IMG/VR virus record: IMGVR_UViG_3300042330_000433
Coordinates: 1 to 64,000 of that record
Source of the DNA: a virus
Length of the DNA: 64,000 nt
Strand: one strand, 5' to 3'
Part shown: positions 2,007-15,803 of the stretch, one piece after another
How positions within the stretch are numbered: position 1 is the stretch's first letter
How the letters are laid out: every line of letters starts with the position of its first letter
Position numbers and translations under genes: made by a program
The notes under the pieces: generated by a model
Databases searched by the model: none
What the model was told of the DNA's origin: nothing
The model's input: the letters and a program-made list of their open reading frames with translations, nothing else

Positions 2007-2038
2007 TTTGGAATTGTCAATTATTTGTTGTATCTTTG
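2007..2038 (+). promoter_or_regulatory. Bacteroidetes housekeeping-sigma promoter (-33/-7)
   Basis: TTTG(2007)-N20-TATCTTTG(2031). Confidence 0.8.
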
Positions 2039-2055
2039 TAATATTAATAACGAAA

Positions 2056-2072
2056 TAGCTATTAGTAAATAA
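2056..2072 (+). promoter_or_regulatory. 17-bp upstream box, copy 1
   Basis: TAGCTATTAGTAAATAA, 28 bp before the -33 TTTG at 2101. Confidence 0.8.
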
Positions 2073-2100: not shown

Positions 2101-2132
2101 TTTGGAATTTACAAATAAATGTTGTATATTTG
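2101..2132 (+). promoter_or_regulatory. Bacteroidetes sigma promoter
   Basis: TTTG(2101)-N20-TATATTTG(2125). Confidence 0.85.
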
Positions 2133-2136
2133 CACT

Positions 2137-2404
2137 TATTAAAATAAACAGCAACTAGTTTAGGATGCAGTTGCCTTAATTAACAGTGGACACGGCACTG
2201 ACGTATAGTTTTAAGGGGATGGGTTTTGCGAGGTATGACAACTTCTGTAACACTGGCTAGCCAAGAGGACATGATTTAACAAAATCGTGGAAACCTCGTT
2301 GTATCTATTAATTAAATAATTATATAAACTATAATATACGTTATAGTTATAGGAAACTTATATACTTTACCCACTATTTCTTATGATTTAGTGGGTTTTT
2401 TTTT
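2137..2404 (+). ncRNA. candidate structured non-coding RNA, family unknown
   Basis: Bounded by two promoters and a terminator; no convincing ORF; 53/120 GC at 2161-2280; multiple nested stems. Confidence 0.6.
2369..2404 (+). terminator. intrinsic terminator
   Basis: ACCCACTA...TAGTGGGT stem followed by a T run. Confidence 0.85.
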
Positions 2405-2500: not shown

Positions 2501-2866
2501 ATGAGAATTTGTAGTTGTTGTAAACAAGAAAAAGAAACAAGTTATTTTAATAAACGTAAAAATGGTTATTATGCTTCTGTATGTACACCATGTTCTGTTG
2601 AAAATTATAGAGAAAAACATTTAATGTCTAAATATGGAATAACATTAGATTATTATGATAAATTATTAGAAAAACAAAATTATTGTTGTGAGATATGTAA
2701 ACATCCAAATAAATCAAAAAGAAGATTATCTGTAGACCATTGTCATATTACAGGAAATGTTAGAGGTTTATTATGTGACACTTGTAATACAGCATTAGGA
2801 AAATTTAGAGATAGTGTTGACTTATTAAATGAAGCTATAAAATATTTAAAAAAATATGAAAAATAA
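2501..2866 (+). CDS. endonuclease VII-family (HNH) homing endonuclease with N-terminal Zn ribbon
   Basis: CxxC...CxxC, KYGITLDYY, QNYCCEIC, LSVDHCHITGNVRGLLCDTCNTALG. Confidence 0.9.
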   Translation: MRICSCCKQEKETSYFNKRKNGYYASVCTPCSVENYREKHLMSKYGITLDYYDKLLEKQNYCCEICKHPNKSKRRLSVDHCHITGNVRGLLCDTCNTALGKFRDSVDLLNEAIKYLKKYEK

Positions 2867-5762: not shown

Positions 5763-6328
5763 TGAAATTATTTGAGATGAAAGACTTCTCGCTATTTGTA
5801 ACAGAAGAAGCGTGGGGTCTTTTGCCTTTCAAGGCAATATTAAAACGAGATAAAAGTAGAACTAAAGAAACGGCATTTAAAGAAATGTTATTTATTTATT
5901 ACTTTACAGATATCAGATCTGATTATGTTTATTTAGTAAACGATGCTGAAAGGACTAAAGAAATTATTAAAGATATTGGTTTACCATCAGATTGGAAAAT
6001 AGACCAAGTAATGAAAGATGCTATTGCTTTTTATAACTCAAGATCATTAAGTCCTATTGCTAAGTTATATAAATCATCTTTAAAAGCTGCTGATGATATA
6101 TCTAAGTATTTAGAAATGACAGATGTTTTATTAGCTGAAAGAACAGATAAAGGTGCTACAGTAACTACATTAGCTGTTATTACAGGATCACTTAAATCAG
6201 TTCCTATTATTATGAAAGATTTAAAAGCTGCTTATAAAGAAGTATTAGCTGAACAAAAAGAATTAGAAGGAAGAACTAAAGGAAGTAGAACAATGTCACT
6301 TTTTGAAGATGGTTTAGGAGAACTATAA
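5762..6328 (+). CDS. conserved crAss-like protein upstream of terminase (possible small terminase)
   Basis: RDKSRTKETAFKEMLFIYY motif, helical, located before TerL. Confidence 0.5.
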   Translation: MKLFEMKDFSLFVTEEAWGLLPFKAILKRDKSRTKETAFKEMLFIYYFTDIRSDYVYLVNDAERTKEIIKDIGLPSDWKIDQVMKDAIAFYNSRSLSPIAKLYKSSLKAADDISKYLEMTDVLLAERTDKGATVTTLAVITGSLKSVPIIMKDLKAAYKEVLAEQKELEGRTKGSRTMSLFEDGLGEL

Positions 6329-6870
6329 TGAGGAAAACTAATAATAAATGTGTTTATTTACATAAACGATTAGATAATAATATTATATTTTATGTAGGTA
6401 TGGGTACATTAAAAAGACCTTATAAAACTACAGGTAGAAATATATATTGGAAAAGAATAGTTAGCAAAGTAGGATATTATATTGAAATAATAAAGGAAAA
6501 TTTATCTTGGTCTGAAGCATGTAAATTAGAATGTGATTTAATAAATAAATATCGTTCTGATAATCTGTGTAATATGACCGATGGTGGTGATGGATCAAAA
6601 GGAACTTCACCATCTAAAGAAACAAGATTAAAAATTAGTGAATTTCATAAAAATAAATCAAAATCTAATGAAGCTAAATTAAAAATGTCAAAAGCTAAAA
6701 AAGGATTATATTTATTAGAAAATAATCCTAATTCTAAAAAAGTAATAAACATTAATACAAATATAATTTTTAATACATTAAAAGAAGCCTCTATTTATGA
6801 AAATATGAATTATGGTACTTTTAAGTGGGCAATTAAAAATAAAATAAATTTTAATTACAAATACATATAA
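6328..6870 (+). CDS. GIY-YIG-like homing endonuclease with NUMOD3/NUMOD1 motifs
   Basis: VYLH...FYVGMG, NMTDGGDG, SKETRLKIS, C-terminal HTH. Confidence 0.85.
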   Translation: MRKTNNKCVYLHKRLDNNIIFYVGMGTLKRPYKTTGRNIYWKRIVSKVGYYIEIIKENLSWSEACKLECDLINKYRSDNLCNMTDGGDGSKGTSPSKETRLKISEFHKNKSKSNEAKLKMSKAKKGLYLLENNPNSKKVININTNIIFNTLKEASIYENMNYGTFKWAIKNKINFNYKYI

Positions 6871-8327
6871 TGAAAGAAATATATTTTAAAAATGAAGCTG
6901 AAGAATTATTATTTGGTGGAATACAAAAATTTACAGATGCTATTGCATGTACTTTAGGACCTAATGGTAAAACAGTTATTATAACTGATGAATATGGTAA
7001 ACCTAAAGTTACTAAAGATGGTGTATCAGTAGCAAGAGAAATATCATTTAAAAATGCTGTTGAAAACATTGGAGCACAACTCGTAAAAGAAGTTTGTGAA
7101 TTACAAGTTAAGCAAGCAGGTGATGGAACAACTACAGCTATTGTATTAGCTAATGCTTTTATTCAAAATTTAAAAGGTTTTGAATCTAAAGATATTAACA
7201 AAGCTTTTGATGAAATTATTCCAAAAGTTATTGAACAATTAAAACTTAATTCAAAAGAATTAAAACGTGAAGATATTAAACATGTTGCTACTATATCTGC
7301 TAATAATGACGTACAGATTGGTGACATTATACAACAGGCTTATAACTTTTCTAATATAGTTAAAGCTGAAGAATCTAATAATTTAGAAGATACTCTAGAA
7401 ACTATAGAGGGAATGAAATTAGATGTATCATATATGTCTAAACTGTTTAGTAATACTAGCAAAGAAACCTGCGAGTTTACAAATCCTTATGTTCTTTTAT
7501 TAGATGGAAAACTAGAAGACCTTTTATTATTTAGACAAATACTTGAAAAAATTAGTTCTGAAAAAGAAAATTTACTTATCATTACAGAGTATATTGCTCC
7601 TAAAGAATTACGTAAGTTAGAAACATTAGTTCTTAATAAAAACATTAATGCTTGTGTTATTAAGACACCAGGATTTGGGCCTGTAAGAAAAGATTATCTT
7701 AGAGATTTATCTGACTTTACTGGAGCTGATATTATTGCTGTACAGTCAAACAAATCATACTTACCATCATGTTTAGGTAAGCTTGGTTCATGTGTTATTA
7801 ATAAAAACAATAGTTTACTAATAAAACATGAAGATGTTAATGTAGAAGATATTGTAGATAGTTTAACAAAGCTTTCTAAAAATAAAGAATTAACTGATTA
7901 TGATATAGAAATACTTAATAAACGTATTGCTAATCTTACAGCTAAAGCATCTATTATTAAAGTAGGTGGTGGTTCTGAAATAGAAATGAAAGAACGTAAG
8001 GATAGATATGATGATGCTATATTAGCTGTTGCATGTGCATTAGAAGAAGGAATTGTACAAGGTGGTGGTGAAGCATTAAGATCTATTGTAAATAATCTTT
8101 CAATTTTTAAAAGTGATCTTAATAATAGTATTAGAATATCTTTAACAGCTCCTGTTAATAGAATTATTGCAAATGGTGCAGTATTTAAAAATTCTGATAA
8201 TATGTTTGATGAAAATATTATAGATCCACTTAAAGTAACTAGATGTGCATTATTAAATGCAGTGTCTATAGCTAAAACAGTATTATCAACTGAAACAATT
8301 ATACTTAATGAACGACAATGGAATTAA
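6870..8327 (+). CDS. groEL: phage chaperonin GroEL-like
   Basis: TLGPNG, TKDGVSVA, AGDGTTT, KTPGFG, IKVGG, EEGIVQGGG, IIDPLKV. Confidence 0.95.
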   Translation: MKEIYFKNEAEELLFGGIQKFTDAIACTLGPNGKTVIITDEYGKPKVTKDGVSVAREISFKNAVENIGAQLVKEVCELQVKQAGDGTTTAIVLANAFIQNLKGFESKDINKAFDEIIPKVIEQLKLNSKELKREDIKHVATISANNDVQIGDIIQQAYNFSNIVKAEESNNLEDTLETIEGMKLDVSYMSKLFSNTSKETCEFTNPYVLLLDGKLEDLLLFRQILEKISSEKENLLIITEYIAPKELRKLETLVLNKNINACVIKTPGFGPVRKDYLRDLSDFTGADIIAVQSNKSYLPSCLGKLGSCVINKNNSLLIKHEDVNVEDIVDSLTKLSKNKELTDYDIEILNKRIANLTAKASIIKVGGGSEIEMKERKDRYDDAILAVACALEEGIVQGGGEALRSIVNNLSIFKSDLNNSIRISLTAPVNRIIANGAVFKNSDNMFDENIIDPLKVTRCALLNAVSIAKTVLSTETIILNERQWN

Positions 8328-10675: not shown

Positions 10676-13078
10676 ATGCCAACACCAAGAATAAATAGTA
10701 TTATAATGCCTAGACAGCGTTTGAAATACAGCCAAAAAAATAAAGAATGGCGAAAAGATAATGTGGATCATGCAGATAAACATTCATTCTATAATAATGA
10801 GTATGTTAGGAAAAGTCTTCAAAACAAAGTTATAAATTTAAATTTATATAATGGTATTGTAGATATTAGAGATTTAACAAACGTAGTAAATCCACATCAA
10901 GTAGATGCTTCATTTGTACCTAACAATATTCCACATCACCCTATAATGGTACCAAAGATTGATTTGTTGGTAGGAGAAGAAATTAAACGTAGATTTGATT
11001 GGTCTGTAATTGTTACCAATGCTGATGCTATTAGTAAAAAAGAAGAAGATAAAAAAGCTTTTCTTCAACAAAAACTTACTGAATTTTTAGAGGCTAATTA
11101 TAAAGAAGATGAATTAAAAGTTAAAATGGATGAACTTGCTAAACATATGAAATATAGTTGGCAAGACATTCGTGAAAAAATGGCTAATCAAATTCTTAAA
11201 CATTATAGCCAAGAACAAAGATTTGATAGATTATTTAACGATGGATTTAAAGAAGCTTTAATTTTAGCTGAAGAAATTTATCAGTGTGATATTGTACATG
11301 ATGAACCATATTTAACTAAATTAAATCCACTAAAAGTACATAGTATTAGAAGTGGTAATTCAGATAGAATTGAAGATTCATCTATTATAATTATACAAGA
11401 TCACTGGAGTCCTAATAAAATTGTTGATGTTTATCACGATGAATTAAAACCTGAAGATATTGATTATATTATGGAATATACTCAAACATCATCTAAAGGC
11501 TCTTACTCCGATGATCAAAATAATCACGTTCTTTTACGTGATGCTTTGAACACTGGGGTTGAAGGAATGTATGATACAATCTTTAATTTAGCTGAAATTA
11601 ATGGTCACTTCTTTGGCTCTAACTTTACAGATGATACAGGTAATATACGTGTATTAAAAGTATTTTGGAAATCATTGAAACAAGTATACAAAGTTAAATA
11701 TTATGATGAATATGGAGAAGAACAATATAAAATTGCTTCTGAAGAATATATTCCTAATAAAGATTTAGGTGAAGAATTAACTTCTATGTGGGTTAATGAA
11801 TGGTGGGAAGGTGTTAAGATAGGTAAAGATGTTTATTTAAATATTAAACCTAGAAGAATACAATATAATAAAATTAATAATCCATCATTATGTCATCCAG
11901 GTATTATTGGACAAATATATAATACTACTCAATCTAAAGCAGTATCATTAGTTGATAGATGTAAAAACTATCAATATATGTATGATGTTATTTGGGATAG
12001 ACTTAATAAAGCTATATCTACTAATTATGGTAAAATATTTGAATTAGATTTAGCTAAAGTTCCTGAAAATTGGGAAATAGAAAAATGGTTACACTTTGCA
12101 GTAGTAAATAAGATTGCTGTAATAGATTCATTTAAAGAAGGTAATCAAGGTGCAGCAACTGGTAAATTAGCTGGTGGTTTTTCTGGACAAGGTGGTAGAG
12201 TTATGGATATGGAAACAGGTTCATATATTCAACAACATATCCAGTTACTTGAGTTTATTAAAATGGAAATGGGTGAGATTGCAGGAGTATCTGCACAACG
12301 TCAAGGACAAATTTCTAATAGAGAAACTGTTGGTGGTGTAGAAAGATCTGTTAATCAATCATCTCATATTACAGAGTATTGGTTTATGTTACATGAACAA
12401 TGTAAAATTAGAGTATTAGAATGTTTTCTAGAAACTGCTAAGATTGCACTAAAAGGTAATAATAAAAAAGTACAATATATATTAGATGATCAATCTATTG
12501 AAATTTTAAATTTAGATGCTGATGAATTTTGTGAAAATGATTATGGATTAGTATTAACTTCTAGTTCTAAAACACAAGAGTTAGAATCTATGATTAAACA
12601 AAATGCTCAAGCTTTCTTACAGAATGGTGGAAGTATGTCAACTATTATGGATATATATTTTAGTCCATCTTTATCAGATATGAGAAGAAGACTTGAAGAA
12701 GCTGAAGAACAAACACATCAAAGAAATTCTGAAGCATCTCAACAACAATCTAAAGATGCTCAAGCTGCAATGGCTCAAACAATGGAATTAGAAAATAGAA
12801 AATTAGAACTTGAAGATATAAAAAATCAAAGAGATAATGAAACTAAACGCTATATTGCTGAGTTATCAAATGAGTTAAATGGTGAAGAAGTTTCAGATGA
12901 TGGTATTGTTAATCCTTTAGATGAAGCAAAGTTTCAATTAGATAGTCAAAAAAGAAAAGATGATTATTTACTAAAAATAAAAGCTTTAGATCAAGACATG
13001 ATTAAACATAAAGATCAAATGGAGGCTAAAAAAATAGATCAAAGTATAAATAGAATAAAAAAGAAAAGTACGAATTAG
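10676..13078 (+). CDS. portal protein
   Basis: 800 aa after TerL; PKIDLLVGEE, EWWEGVKIG, GVSAQRQGQI and C-terminal coiled coil, typical of crAss-like portals. Confidence 0.9.
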   Translation: MPTPRINSIIMPRQRLKYSQKNKEWRKDNVDHADKHSFYNNEYVRKSLQNKVINLNLYNGIVDIRDLTNVVNPHQVDASFVPNNIPHHPIMVPKIDLLVGEEIKRRFDWSVIVTNADAISKKEEDKKAFLQQKLTEFLEANYKEDELKVKMDELAKHMKYSWQDIREKMANQILKHYSQEQRFDRLFNDGFKEALILAEEIYQCDIVHDEPYLTKLNPLKVHSIRSGNSDRIEDSSIIIIQDHWSPNKIVDVYHDELKPEDIDYIMEYTQTSSKGSYSDDQNNHVLLRDALNTGVEGMYDTIFNLAEINGHFFGSNFTDDTGNIRVLKVFWKSLKQVYKVKYYDEYGEEQYKIASEEYIPNKDLGEELTSMWVNEWWEGVKIGKDVYLNIKPRRIQYNKINNPSLCHPGIIGQIYNTTQSKAVSLVDRCKNYQYMYDVIWDRLNKAISTNYGKIFELDLAKVPENWEIEKWLHFAVVNKIAVIDSFKEGNQGAATGKLAGGFSGQGGRVMDMETGSYIQQHIQLLEFIKMEMGEIAGVSAQRQGQISNRETVGGVERSVNQSSHITEYWFMLHEQCKIRVLECFLETAKIALKGNNKKVQYILDDQSIEILNLDADEFCENDYGLVLTSSSKTQELESMIKQNAQAFLQNGGSMSTIMDIYFSPSLSDMRRRLEEAEEQTHQRNSEASQQQSKDAQAAMAQTMELENRKLELEDIKNQRDNETKRYIAELSNELNGEEVSDDGIVNPLDEAKFQLDSQKRKDDYLLKIKALDQDMIKHKDQMEAKKIDQSINRIKKKSTN

Positions 13079-14297: not shown

Positions 14298-15803
14298 ATG
14301 AGTTTAGGAAAGTATGTAATGACCAAAGGTAAAGCATGGTCAGGTTTAACACTAAAAAATCACATCGGTGCAATTTTTGGATTACAACCACAATTAGTTT
14401 CACCATTAACAACTGTGTTGTTACAAAGCTCTGGAATGAAAAATTTAGATACAACATTATCTATGTTCCCAGAAAAAGTTTTAAACAGTGCGGATGATTT
14501 TGTATGGAAAGTAGTAGGTAGTGATGAAAGAAATATACCACTTGTTGAAGCAAGATTTCAAGGCGCAGTAGTTACTTCAAGTACAACTGGTGTTGGTCAA
14601 GCTAGAACACAATTCCAAATGGTATTTGGAGAAAAATGGTTTACTAAAATGCATGTTATTGCAGGTCCTAGACCAGATGTATATCAAATTAGAATTTTAG
14701 AAGATGCTTTTGAAGAAGGATCATTGTATGTTTATAACTGTGAAGTATGGGGTGGTCAAGAATCACTTGCTGGTATTCCTGGAGATGAACTTGTAGGTGG
14801 AAATAGATTTAGTATTGAATCTGCATATTCTGAAGATGAACTTTCTATTCAAGGTGCTGGAATTCAATTTACTTCACCTTACTTAATGAGAAACTCAGTT
14901 TCTACATTACGTATGGAACATAAAGTTTCTGGTGCAATGATTGATTGTAAAGTAGAACCAGTTTATTTTGCTGGTATTGAAACAAGAGATCCTAACACAG
15001 GTAAAGTACATAAGTCTACAACTTGGATGCAAGAAGTTTACTGGCAGTTTGAAAAATCATTTTCACGAATTAAATCTCGTACAATCATGTTTGGTAAAAC
15101 AAACCGTGATGAAAATGGTGGATATTTAAACGTTGGTGCATCAGGTATCAAAATTAAAGCAGGTTCTGGTATTAGAGAACAAATGGAAGTTTCAAATACA
15201 ATTACGTATAACTTCTTCTCAATGCGTTTACTTGAAGATGCTCTTTCAGAATTATCAGAAGGTAAATTAGATTTCTCTGAACGTAAATTTATGTTACGTA
15301 CAGGTGAAAGAGGAGCTGCTCAATTTAATAGAGCTGCTACTGCTGCTGCTTCTGGTTGGAAATCATTATTTGATAATACCAATCAAAATGCAATCAATAA
15401 AGTACAATCTAAATTCCATGAAAATGCATTTAAAGGTGGATTCCAATTCACTGAATGGTTAGCACCTAATAACATTCATATTATGTTAGAGGTAGATCCA
15501 GCTTATGATGATAAAGTTCGTAACAAAATTTTACATCCAGATGGTGGAGTTGCTGAATCTTACAGATATGATATTCTTTACATTGGTTCAATGGAAGAGC
15601 CTAACATCCAAAAAATCAAAGTTAAAGGCGATGATGAATTGAGAGGTTATATGGCAGGTATTAGAGATCCATTTTCTGGACGTAGAGGTGGAATCATGCA
15701 ATTAATGGAAGATAGTGCTACTATGACAGCTATGTGTGGTACAGGAGCGATGGTTAAAGATCCTTCTAGAACACTAACTTTCAAACCAGCATTGTTAGAT
15801 TAA
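14298..15803 (+). CDS. major capsid protein
   Basis: 501 aa, position after scaffold, GSGIREQ and LRTGERG motifs, followed by a terminator. Confidence 0.9.
   Translation: MSLGKYVMTKGKAWSGLTLKNHIGAIFGLQPQLVSPLTTVLLQSSGMKNLDTTLSMFPEKVLNSADDFVWKVVGSDERNIPLVEARFQGAVVTSSTTGVGQARTQFQMVFGEKWFTKMHVIAGPRPDVYQIRILEDAFEEGSLYVYNCEVWGGQESLAGIPGDELVGGNRFSIESAYSEDELSIQGAGIQFTSPYLMRNSVSTLRMEHKVSGAMIDCKVEPVYFAGIETRDPNTGKVHKSTTWMQEVYWQFEKSFSRIKSRTIMFGKTNRDENGGYLNVGASGIKIKAGSGIREQMEVSNTITYNFFSMRLLEDALSELSEGKLDFSERKFMLRTGERGAAQFNRAATAAASGWKSLFDNTNQNAINKVQSKFHENAFKGGFQFTEWLAPNNIHIMLEVDPAYDDKVRNKILHPDGGVAESYRYDILYIGSMEEPNIQKIKVKGDDELRGYMAGIRDPFSGRRGGIMQLMEDSATMTAMCGTGAMVKDPSRTLTFKPALLD

Follow-up and report, generated by a model that had tools for sequence, protein, structure and literature searches.

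The question raised by this locus is whether a segment of about 265 nt, 2137-2404 on the + strand, placed between two gene arms of a phage and bounded by its own promoter and terminator, encodes an RNA that works as such and, if so, in which process. The DNA analyzed (the window, 64,000 nucleotides) is the first 64 kb of a viral record totalling 92,212 bp. The nearest cultured relative of the phage is Cellulophaga phage phi14:2 (crAss-like, Steigviridae), and the major head protein has 62.7% identity to the phi14:2 homologue. The leftward gene block stops at 1814, a rightward arm of 53 kb extends from ~2500, and the RNA locus sits inside the divergent gap separating the two. Farther along the rightward arm, a GroEL-like chaperonin gene (6870-8327; phrog_5725, E 9e-115) lies directly ahead of the terminase gene (cf. 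phi14:2 g105). A sequence-only reading of the window had proposed a stand-alone structured RNA sharing a promoter box with the portal and capsid genes, possibly a prohead or packaging RNA.

The two tandem promoters in that reading were recovered: a 27-nt promoter pattern occurs at 2007-2033 and 2101-2127 (two matches versus 0.00 expected), and both copies end in the Bacteroidota -7 motif TAnnTTTG. A sigma-70 consensus scan (46 sites versus 52 expected) is uninformative for promoters of this Bacteroidota type. The promoter core TTACAAATAAATGTTGTAT is identical across 12 viral contigs, with the RNA described here (type A) downstream in seven and a different RNA of ~300 nt (type B) in five. The 17-bp box upstream of the promoter is, as had been claimed, common to the RNA (copy at 2056), the portal gene (10567), and the operon encoding the g092-like protein and the major head protein (13076), and the identities given to the portal and major head protein genes were confirmed. 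Elsewhere in the 92-kb genome, the box has only one match, at 6709, with two mismatches. Each of the three copies starts 45 nt upstream of TTTGGAAT. Upstream of the RNA, the distance from the GCTATTAG box to the -33 element is a fixed 43 nt in all members read. The same box stands, at 43 to 44 nt, ahead of the operon for the g092-like and major head proteins in two other complete type A genomes, so that the link of the RNA with the capsid genes is conserved. This link is the strongest clue to function. The portal and capsid promoters that carry the 17-bp box have no such RNA downstream.

The hairpin and T9 run that had been taken for a terminator do close the unit (Table 1). A run of at least six T lies 70 to 220 nt past the core in 22 of 23 distinct tails, preceded by a hairpin in those read, and a new TAnnTTTG promoter follows the terminator, ahead of the next ORF, in about 21 of the 23. 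The new full promoter comes within 60 to 80 nt of the terminator in nearly all members, which share the order promoter, RNA, terminator, new promoter; one member, L034, lacks a terminator and reads directly into an ORF. Members differ in both the sequence and the length of the tail that joins core to terminator, some having a P5-type hairpin and others different hairpins. Four members (L026, L030, L035, and L039) have extra inserts of ~100 nt that separate the type A tail from the terminator and may be a second RNA module within the RNA-only unit. In a single lineage (L014:2076-2149 and L136), a tRNA-Thr (UGU) stands after the promoter and ahead of the type A RNA, and the tRNA and the RNA are therefore predicted to form one transcript; association with a tRNA gene was found in this lineage only. 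In three contigs of members (L036:4160-4540, L068:2736-3128, and L158:4749-5063), ARAGORN also called tmRNA-like genes whose tag peptides are unusual; the calls could be genuine phage tmRNA-like RNAs or false positives.

Table 1. Features of the RNA unit, its fold, and its genomic surroundings (window positions unless a contig is named)
Feature	Position	Strand or arm	Remarks
Upstream tandem promoter copy, TTTGGAAT...TATCTTTG	2007-2038	+	Only in the window and the closest relative
17-bp box TAGCTATTAGTAAATAA, core GCTATTAG	2056-2072	+	Core 43 nt ahead of the -33 element
RNA promoter, TTTGGAAT (-33-like) and TATATTTG (-7, TAnnTTTG)	2101-2132	+	Pattern scan
Predicted primary transcript, ~265 nt	2139-2404	+	5' end placed from the promoter
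Conserved core, 165 nt	2145-2311	+	R1 match
P1 hairpin, CAAC/GUUG	2152-2155/2170-2173 (whole, 2152-2173)	+	14-nt loop, 2156-2169; invariant
PK2, UAGUU (P1 loop)/GGCUA	2156-2160/2255-2259	+	4/6 pairs change on both sides
PK1, UGCA (last four P1-loop bases)/UGUA	2166-2169/2246-2249	+	3/4 pairs change on both sides
P2 closing helix, CCUUAA/UUAAGG	2174-2179/2211-2216	+	All 6 pairs change on both sides
P2 inner hairpin, CAGUG/CACUG	2184-2188/2196-2200	+	Compensatory changes in relatives
P3a, GGGU/AUCU	2221-2224/2303-2306	+	One-sided changes only
P3, GCGAGG/CCUCGU	2228-2233/2294-2299	+	Four pairs covary
Junction: UAUGACAACUUC, PK1 3' strand, ACAC, PK2 3' strand, AGCCAAG (2259-2265)	2234-2265	+	
P4 hairpin, CAUGAUUU/AAAUCGUG	2270-2277/2282-2289	+	6/7 pairs change on both sides
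P5 tail hairpin, AACUAUAA/UUAUAGUU	2327-2348	+	Subset of members
Intrinsic terminator, ACCCACTA/TAGTGGGT	2369-2404	+	Hairpin with 8-bp stem, then U9 (T9)
Endonuclease VII	2501-2866		Directly after the RNA
phrog_314 endonuclease	6328-6870		
Large terminase, 748 aa	8318-10564	Rightward arm	phrog_6681 match, E 5.9e-99; canonical type
Portal	10676-13078	Rightward arm	Identity confirmed
g092-like protein, 368 aa	13150-14256	Rightward arm	Position as phi14:2 g092
Major head protein	14298-15803	Rightward arm	Identity confirmed
GCTATTAG box ahead of capsid operon	L225 (G001:37079-37126); L231 (G002:1628-1639)		
GIY-YIG with NUMOD1	L031:4865-5575		Directly upstream of the RNA; L038 too by blastp clustering
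Type B loci	L205-L207, L200, L202, L166, L168, L177, L192, L193		

Composition and folding set the segment apart. Its G+C content is 44.2% at 2161-2280, compared with 16 to 17% in the flanks, as had been noticed, and 25.6% in the window. The + strand folds at -65 kcal/mol (z -3.7), which none of 200 shuffles equals; the z score of the - strand is -2.3. The statement that ATG frames are 14 aa or shorter holds on the + strand, and the - strand has one ATG frame of 30 aa, which is not conserved. The sequence-only reading had recognized no tRNA, tmRNA, or ribozyme core, and the searches agree: ARAGORN found 0 tRNA or tmRNA genes in the window, and a permissive Rfam scan of 1850-2500 had its best match at E 0.16, well below threshold. 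At the gathering thresholds of Rfam 15, the sole match in the window is a Hatchet ribozyme at 824-974 on the - strand (RF02678, 75.1 bits versus a threshold of 51), inside a gene-free stretch of 780 nt downstream of the leftward gene at 1368-1814 and 1.2 kb from the RNA. The RNA matches no model of the self-cleaving classes (hatchet, pistol, twister, twister-sister, hammerhead, and HDV-like), and the pRNA covariance model RF00044 has no match even up to E 10. Rfam scans of nine other loci (six type A and three type B) returned tRNAs alone and no known ribozyme nearby. No target complementary to the invariant segments was found within the 64-kb window, and no publication describing the RNA was found in the literature.

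Homologues were collected with an invariant-core motif, which gave 28 viral loci with 23 distinct cores, and a metagenome scan added 23 further loci. The covariance model R1 has 48 matches, 40 of them distinct, at 91 to 178 bits in viral and metagenome contigs, and its sole match in the genome under study scores 163.5 bits (2145-2311). A looser scan of viral contigs with a 15-base motif returned mostly chance matches in coding DNA, and its sole new member was L068. R1 found no match in type B loci. With filters off, its best match in the corresponding region of phi14:2 scored only 12.6 bits, so the RNA is absent from the phi14:2 slot, and blastn of three diverged members against 50,697 GenBank phage records gave no match. 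Among 185,579 prokaryote species genomes, the one match is a 104-kb phage-like contig binned into a MAG, and the RNA is therefore a phage RNA rather than a copy of a host RNA; the RNA region read in that contig shows no difference from the one in the phage contig behind L014. Each genome has a single copy in a constant slot, where the RNA opens the rightward arm in one orientation, ahead of an unchanging series of small conserved genes. Phages whose neighboring proteins share only 38 to 47% identity have RNAs that are 85% identical. Judged from these contigs, at least 40 different environmental crAss-like phages keep the predicted RNA as the first unit of the structural-gene arm.

For the first structure test, 23 sequences were aligned with MAFFT without fitting to any structure, and pairing partners slid by one to three columns served as controls. 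In this alignment, 89.8% of cells pair, compared with 37 to 48% when slid, and 18 pairs change on both sides, with a covariation score of 0.476 versus 0.227 or less in the controls. Across the 40 distinct sequences, 93.2% of cells pair (35 to 50% when slid), two-sided changes occur in 21 of the 31 tested pairs, and none of 500 shuffles attains the covariation score; covariation in a covariance model was the check that the sequence-only reading had asked of its proposal. A close relative, 88% identical over the region, has compensatory changes in CCUUAA/UUAAGG and CAGUG/CACUG. The P2 domain (2174-2216) differs in length and sequence among members. P1 has its CG and AU pairs in 38 to 40 of the 40 rows, the exceptions coming from one misaligned, truncated row; because its CAAC/GUUG never varies, covariation is silent on this helix.

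A mutual-information scan showed that the 14-nt loop of P1 pairs with one downstream strand in two blocks, PK2 and PK1. In the pseudoknot columns, 92.9% of cells pair versus 21 to 47% when slid, and seven of the 10 pairs change on both sides, versus none or one in the controls. These columns are unpaired in the model, and the alignment was therefore not fitted to PK1 or PK2. About 50 unpaired or junction bases are invariant. The invariant or near-invariant stretches common to all members are the loop center AGG, GGUAUGACRACUUC (one A/G site), AGCCAAG, and GGAAACC. Within the junction, UAUGACAACUUC is invariant except for one A/G position, and AGCCAAG at 2259-2265 is the same in 39 of 40 sequences, the remaining one having a G-to-A change. 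GAAA at 2290-2293, between P4 and the 3' strand of P3, is also invariant. A possible GGUUU/AAACC pairing never varies and competes with P3, which covaries. The window contains all elements of the proposed type A definition: P1 with a 14-nt loop, P2, P3a/P3, P4, PK1, PK2, and the conserved stretches.

The helices drawn from the single sequence fared unevenly. CCTTAA/TTAAGG, CAGTG/CACTG, CATGATTT/AAATCGTG, and AACTATAA/TTATAGTT stand, and GCAACT/AGTTGC retains an invariant CAAC/GTTG core, on which covariation is neutral. As drawn, ACAAC/GTTGT and GAGG/CCTC do not: the former is broken in the nearest relative, and the CCTC supposed to pair with GAGG (2267) pairs instead with GCGAGG at 2228-2233. 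The palindrome TGGCTAGCCA, which it had been suggested could drive oligomerization, is not kept in relatives (CTATATAAGCCA and CTGGTAAGCCA) and was rejected as a conserved feature, its left half being the PK2 strand and its right half belonging to AGCCAAG. PK1, PK2, and helix P3a were absent from the earlier set of stems. The wider proposal of a stand-alone structured RNA is upheld by the homologues, the covariation, the promoter and terminator of its own, and the folding of the + strand. Comparison of homologues thus establishes a conserved, separately bounded non-coding RNA of no catalogued family, with a predicted fold containing two pseudoknots. The comparative support is unusually clean, with 40 distinct sequences, two-sided changes in 21 of 31 pairs, and two pseudoknots on unfitted columns. 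Phages have few stand-alone structured RNAs, hardly any of them with a known function.

With regard to function, the reading that we hold on balance, and with moderate confidence, is that the RNA would act through its fold, in trans, at the time of head building, either bound to protein or as a catalyst. The unit is started by the Bacteroidota-type promoter with its upstream box, which the portal gene and the capsid operon also have, and closed by its own terminator, with a separate promoter serving the next gene. In the predicted core, P1 stacks beside the variable P2, and the long P3a/P3 helix encloses P4; both halves of the P1 loop pair with one downstream strand (PK2 and PK1) and tie the halves of the molecule together in a compact form. 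The product would be part of a protein complex or a catalytic RNA and probably neither an antisense RNA, an mRNA leader, nor a source of peptide.

The likely producer and timing can be proposed by analogy with phi14:2. Primer extension in that phage mapped "middle" promoters ahead of g070, g075, g108, and g110; these promoters have -35-like and -10-like blocks, are rifampicin sensitive, and are used by the host RNA polymerase (bioRxiv 10.1101/2020.03.07.982082). The RNA promoter belongs to the class of these middle promoters, so the RNA would be synthesized by the host polymerase in the middle-to-late phase, alongside the head components. The corresponding arm of phi14:2 opens with g110, and the promoter before this gene is at the same genome position as that of the RNA (cf. 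bioRxiv 10.1101/2020.03.07.982082). Several observations weigh against the preferred reading: no member comes from a cultured phage, with none among GenBank phage records or in the phi14:2 slot, the RNA is dispensable to the clade (33 of 63 anchored loci have it), and its fixed place at the arm head is also compatible with a cis-acting role. No partner protein was found; the adjacent genes vary among members and are mostly homing endonucleases or unknowns. The defined promoter and terminator, together with a regulatory tie to capsid genes that is retained in diverged genomes, make the RNA suited to bench work.

A cis-acting role would make the RNA a transcription element heading the 53-kb arm, in which nascent RNA modifies the polymerase, in processive antitermination of the HK022 put or Bacillus EAR kind, or gates read-through of its own terminator into the arm. 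It is consistent with a unit that is always the first rightward one, in one orientation and just past the promoter, with a terminator downstream and further terminators in the arm, and with the retention of some other RNA in the slot of relatives; the member L034, running into an ORF without a terminator, fits as well. The new full promoter 60 to 80 nt past the terminator in nearly all members argues against it, as do the other box-bearing promoters (portal and capsid), which lack such an RNA, and a 165-nt, two-pseudoknot core far larger than put or nut elements. The tail is also variable, and in the sequences read by eye no conserved alternative pairing between core and terminator was seen, which argues against a riboswitch-like switch. 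A riboswitch or attenuator is disfavored on the same reading, tails and terminators differing among near-identical cores with no conserved competing helix, and a put or EAR element, which supposes no separate downstream promoter, is disfavored by the new TAnnTTTG promoter in about 21 of the 23 tails. A cis-acting element is thus possible but unlikely.

The slot itself suggests another explanation. When 63 loci, some of them cut short, were anchored on a nearby conserved gene, 33 were type A, and in most of the others the slot held type B, type C (short and purine rich), or another non-coding gap. The neighboring c2 protein is 76 to 78% identical to that of the window in phages with type B, type C, or no clear RNA, and its identity to the window is as low as 38% in type A phages. 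Phages with another RNA or none can therefore be nearer the window than most type A phages are, which indicates that the slot exchanges cassettes. Type B is an unrelated conserved non-coding stretch of ~300 nt with no Rfam match (e.g., L006:2410-2710, - strand). In the type B loci L006/L016/L017/L020, L012, and L022, the same promoter and box lie upstream and a T5orf172/MUG113 gene lies downstream in the unit. Type C is a purine-rich hairpin RNA of ~90 nt (AAAGGUA...GGGGGAUGGAG...UACCUUU) in the slot of close relatives (L165:2820-2910, L172, and L187). A G+C-rich element of ~45 nt (1908-1950; GGGTATAACCC...GTCGGGGTATGATGTTGG) is kept in at least 12 distinct variants and was found next to slots of types A, B, and C. 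In the loci read, its place is between the leftward gene and the rightward promoters, and it could serve the leftward genes, possibly early ones, as a leader or promoter.

The RNA might accordingly be selfish or accessory cargo in a recombination or homing hot spot, for example an anti-defense decoy or a homing-endonuclease target. The occupation of the slot by unrelated RNAs, or no clear RNA, in phages near the window points this way, and so do the endonuclease VII, GIY-YIG, and T5orf172 genes that flank it. Strong purifying selection on ~50 unpaired bases and on the fold implies instead that the RNA is useful to the phage, and the conserved box ties it to the capsid promoters. As a full account, cargo is decidedly unlikely, but cargo and functional roles are mutually compatible. 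The first structural-arm slot of phi14:2-related crAss-like phages is in any case a swap site ringed by homing endonucleases, which bears on how phage non-coding RNA genes spread.

A further candidate is a new self-cleaving or other catalytic small ribozyme that processes the transcript, for instance by freeing the RNA or an adjacent tRNA. Small ribozymes have invariant junction bases flanked by freely covarying helices, and the RNA is likewise pseudoknotted with many invariant junction bases beside freely covarying helices; the hatchet lies 1.2 kb away, and in one lineage the RNA directly follows a tRNA. HDV-like theta ribozymes are reported to adjoin phage tRNAs (PMC10879173). Against a ribozyme, the RNA has one copy per genome at a fixed position, unlike the scattered, multicopy habit of phage ribozymes. 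There is, in addition, no family match, no known ribozyme near the nine other member or relative loci scanned, and no conserved cleavage-site signature was identified, which makes a processing ribozyme quite improbable.

The prohead or packaging RNA of the sequence-only reading found no direct support, the palindrome being unconserved, the terminase canonical, and pRNA-like Rfam matches absent. In its revised form, PK1/PK2 pairing between molecules would build a phi29 pRNA-like ring on the portal. The loop-to-strand complementarity of 9 to 12 bp does covary, covariation is blind to whether pairing is intra- or intermolecular, and the promoter box is common to the portal and capsid genes. Packaging of the phi29 kind uses a small pRNA-dependent ATPase in place of a canonical terminase, and this phage has the 748-aa large terminase, which makes a phi29 pRNA-like role unlikely; about half of the close relatives, moreover, lack the RNA, and we know of no RNA reported in the published crAss001 virion structure. 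A packaging RNA of the phi29 kind is hardly credible. Very improbable, too, is intermolecular pairing of the P1 loop and junction strand in a head-to-tail dimer or ring that acts on the procapsid or portal of a phage also equipped with a canonical terminase; were this true, a prohead RNA would have arisen independently for a second time, or the assembly would be RNA-only in the manner of ROOL and GOLLD.

Just as poor a fit is a translated micro-ORF, MTTSxTLxSQ, read from the invariant AUG at 2235 as a leader peptide or dual-function RNA: the AUG and ten open codons are kept in 40 of 40 members, two codons vary, both through synonymous changes alone (ACA/ACG and TCA/TCT/TCC), and the frame is Thr rich with a tRNA-Thr upstream in one lineage, but beyond codon 10 both length (11 to at least 29 aa) and sequence are unrelated among members, codons 3, 5, and 10 have invariant third positions and codon 9 shows no variation at its own, unlike coding drift, all variable sites but one are PK1/PK2 partners covarying with the P1 loop, and the AUG abuts the G+C-rich helix P3, with conservation reaching upstream of it, so the frame is read as a by-product of the invariant RNA core. 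A small protein gene was rejected, as only the ten codons are common to members and variation is not concentrated as coding predicts.

The structured, trans-acting RNA preferred here resembles several known systems in part. HK022 put and Bacillus EAR are likewise promoter-proximal folded RNAs opening a long, terminator-containing operon, but the RNA has its own terminator and a fresh promoter after it and is much larger and pseudoknotted. With pistol, twister, hatchet, and HDV-like/theta ribozymes it has in common loop-to-downstream-strand pairing, invariant junctions, covarying helices, and occurrence in phages; unlike them, it has a larger core (165 nt), a single fixed copy, and no family match. 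phi29 pRNA (RF00044) is likewise small, phage encoded, and marked by covarying loop pairing of 4 bp, whereas the RNA is optional in its clade, coexists with a canonical terminase, and has no Rfam match. The long non-coding RNAs of phi14:2, in the g004-g005 and g005-g006 gaps, are highly expressed with no known function (bioRxiv 10.1101/2020.03.07.982082). They differ in being early, rightward transcripts at another locus, the corresponding phi14:2 slot having no R1 match. Species 1 (rnaC) and species 2 (rnaD) of phage T4 are stable, structured small RNAs with no known function. The RNA is similarly a phage-encoded, stand-alone structured RNA of the 120- to 260-nt range, with tRNA cotranscription predicted in one lineage. 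It probably has no sequence or fold relation to the T4 RNAs, from which it is distinguished by a normal position outside tRNA clusters, two covarying pseudoknots, and a constant location where the structural arm begins.
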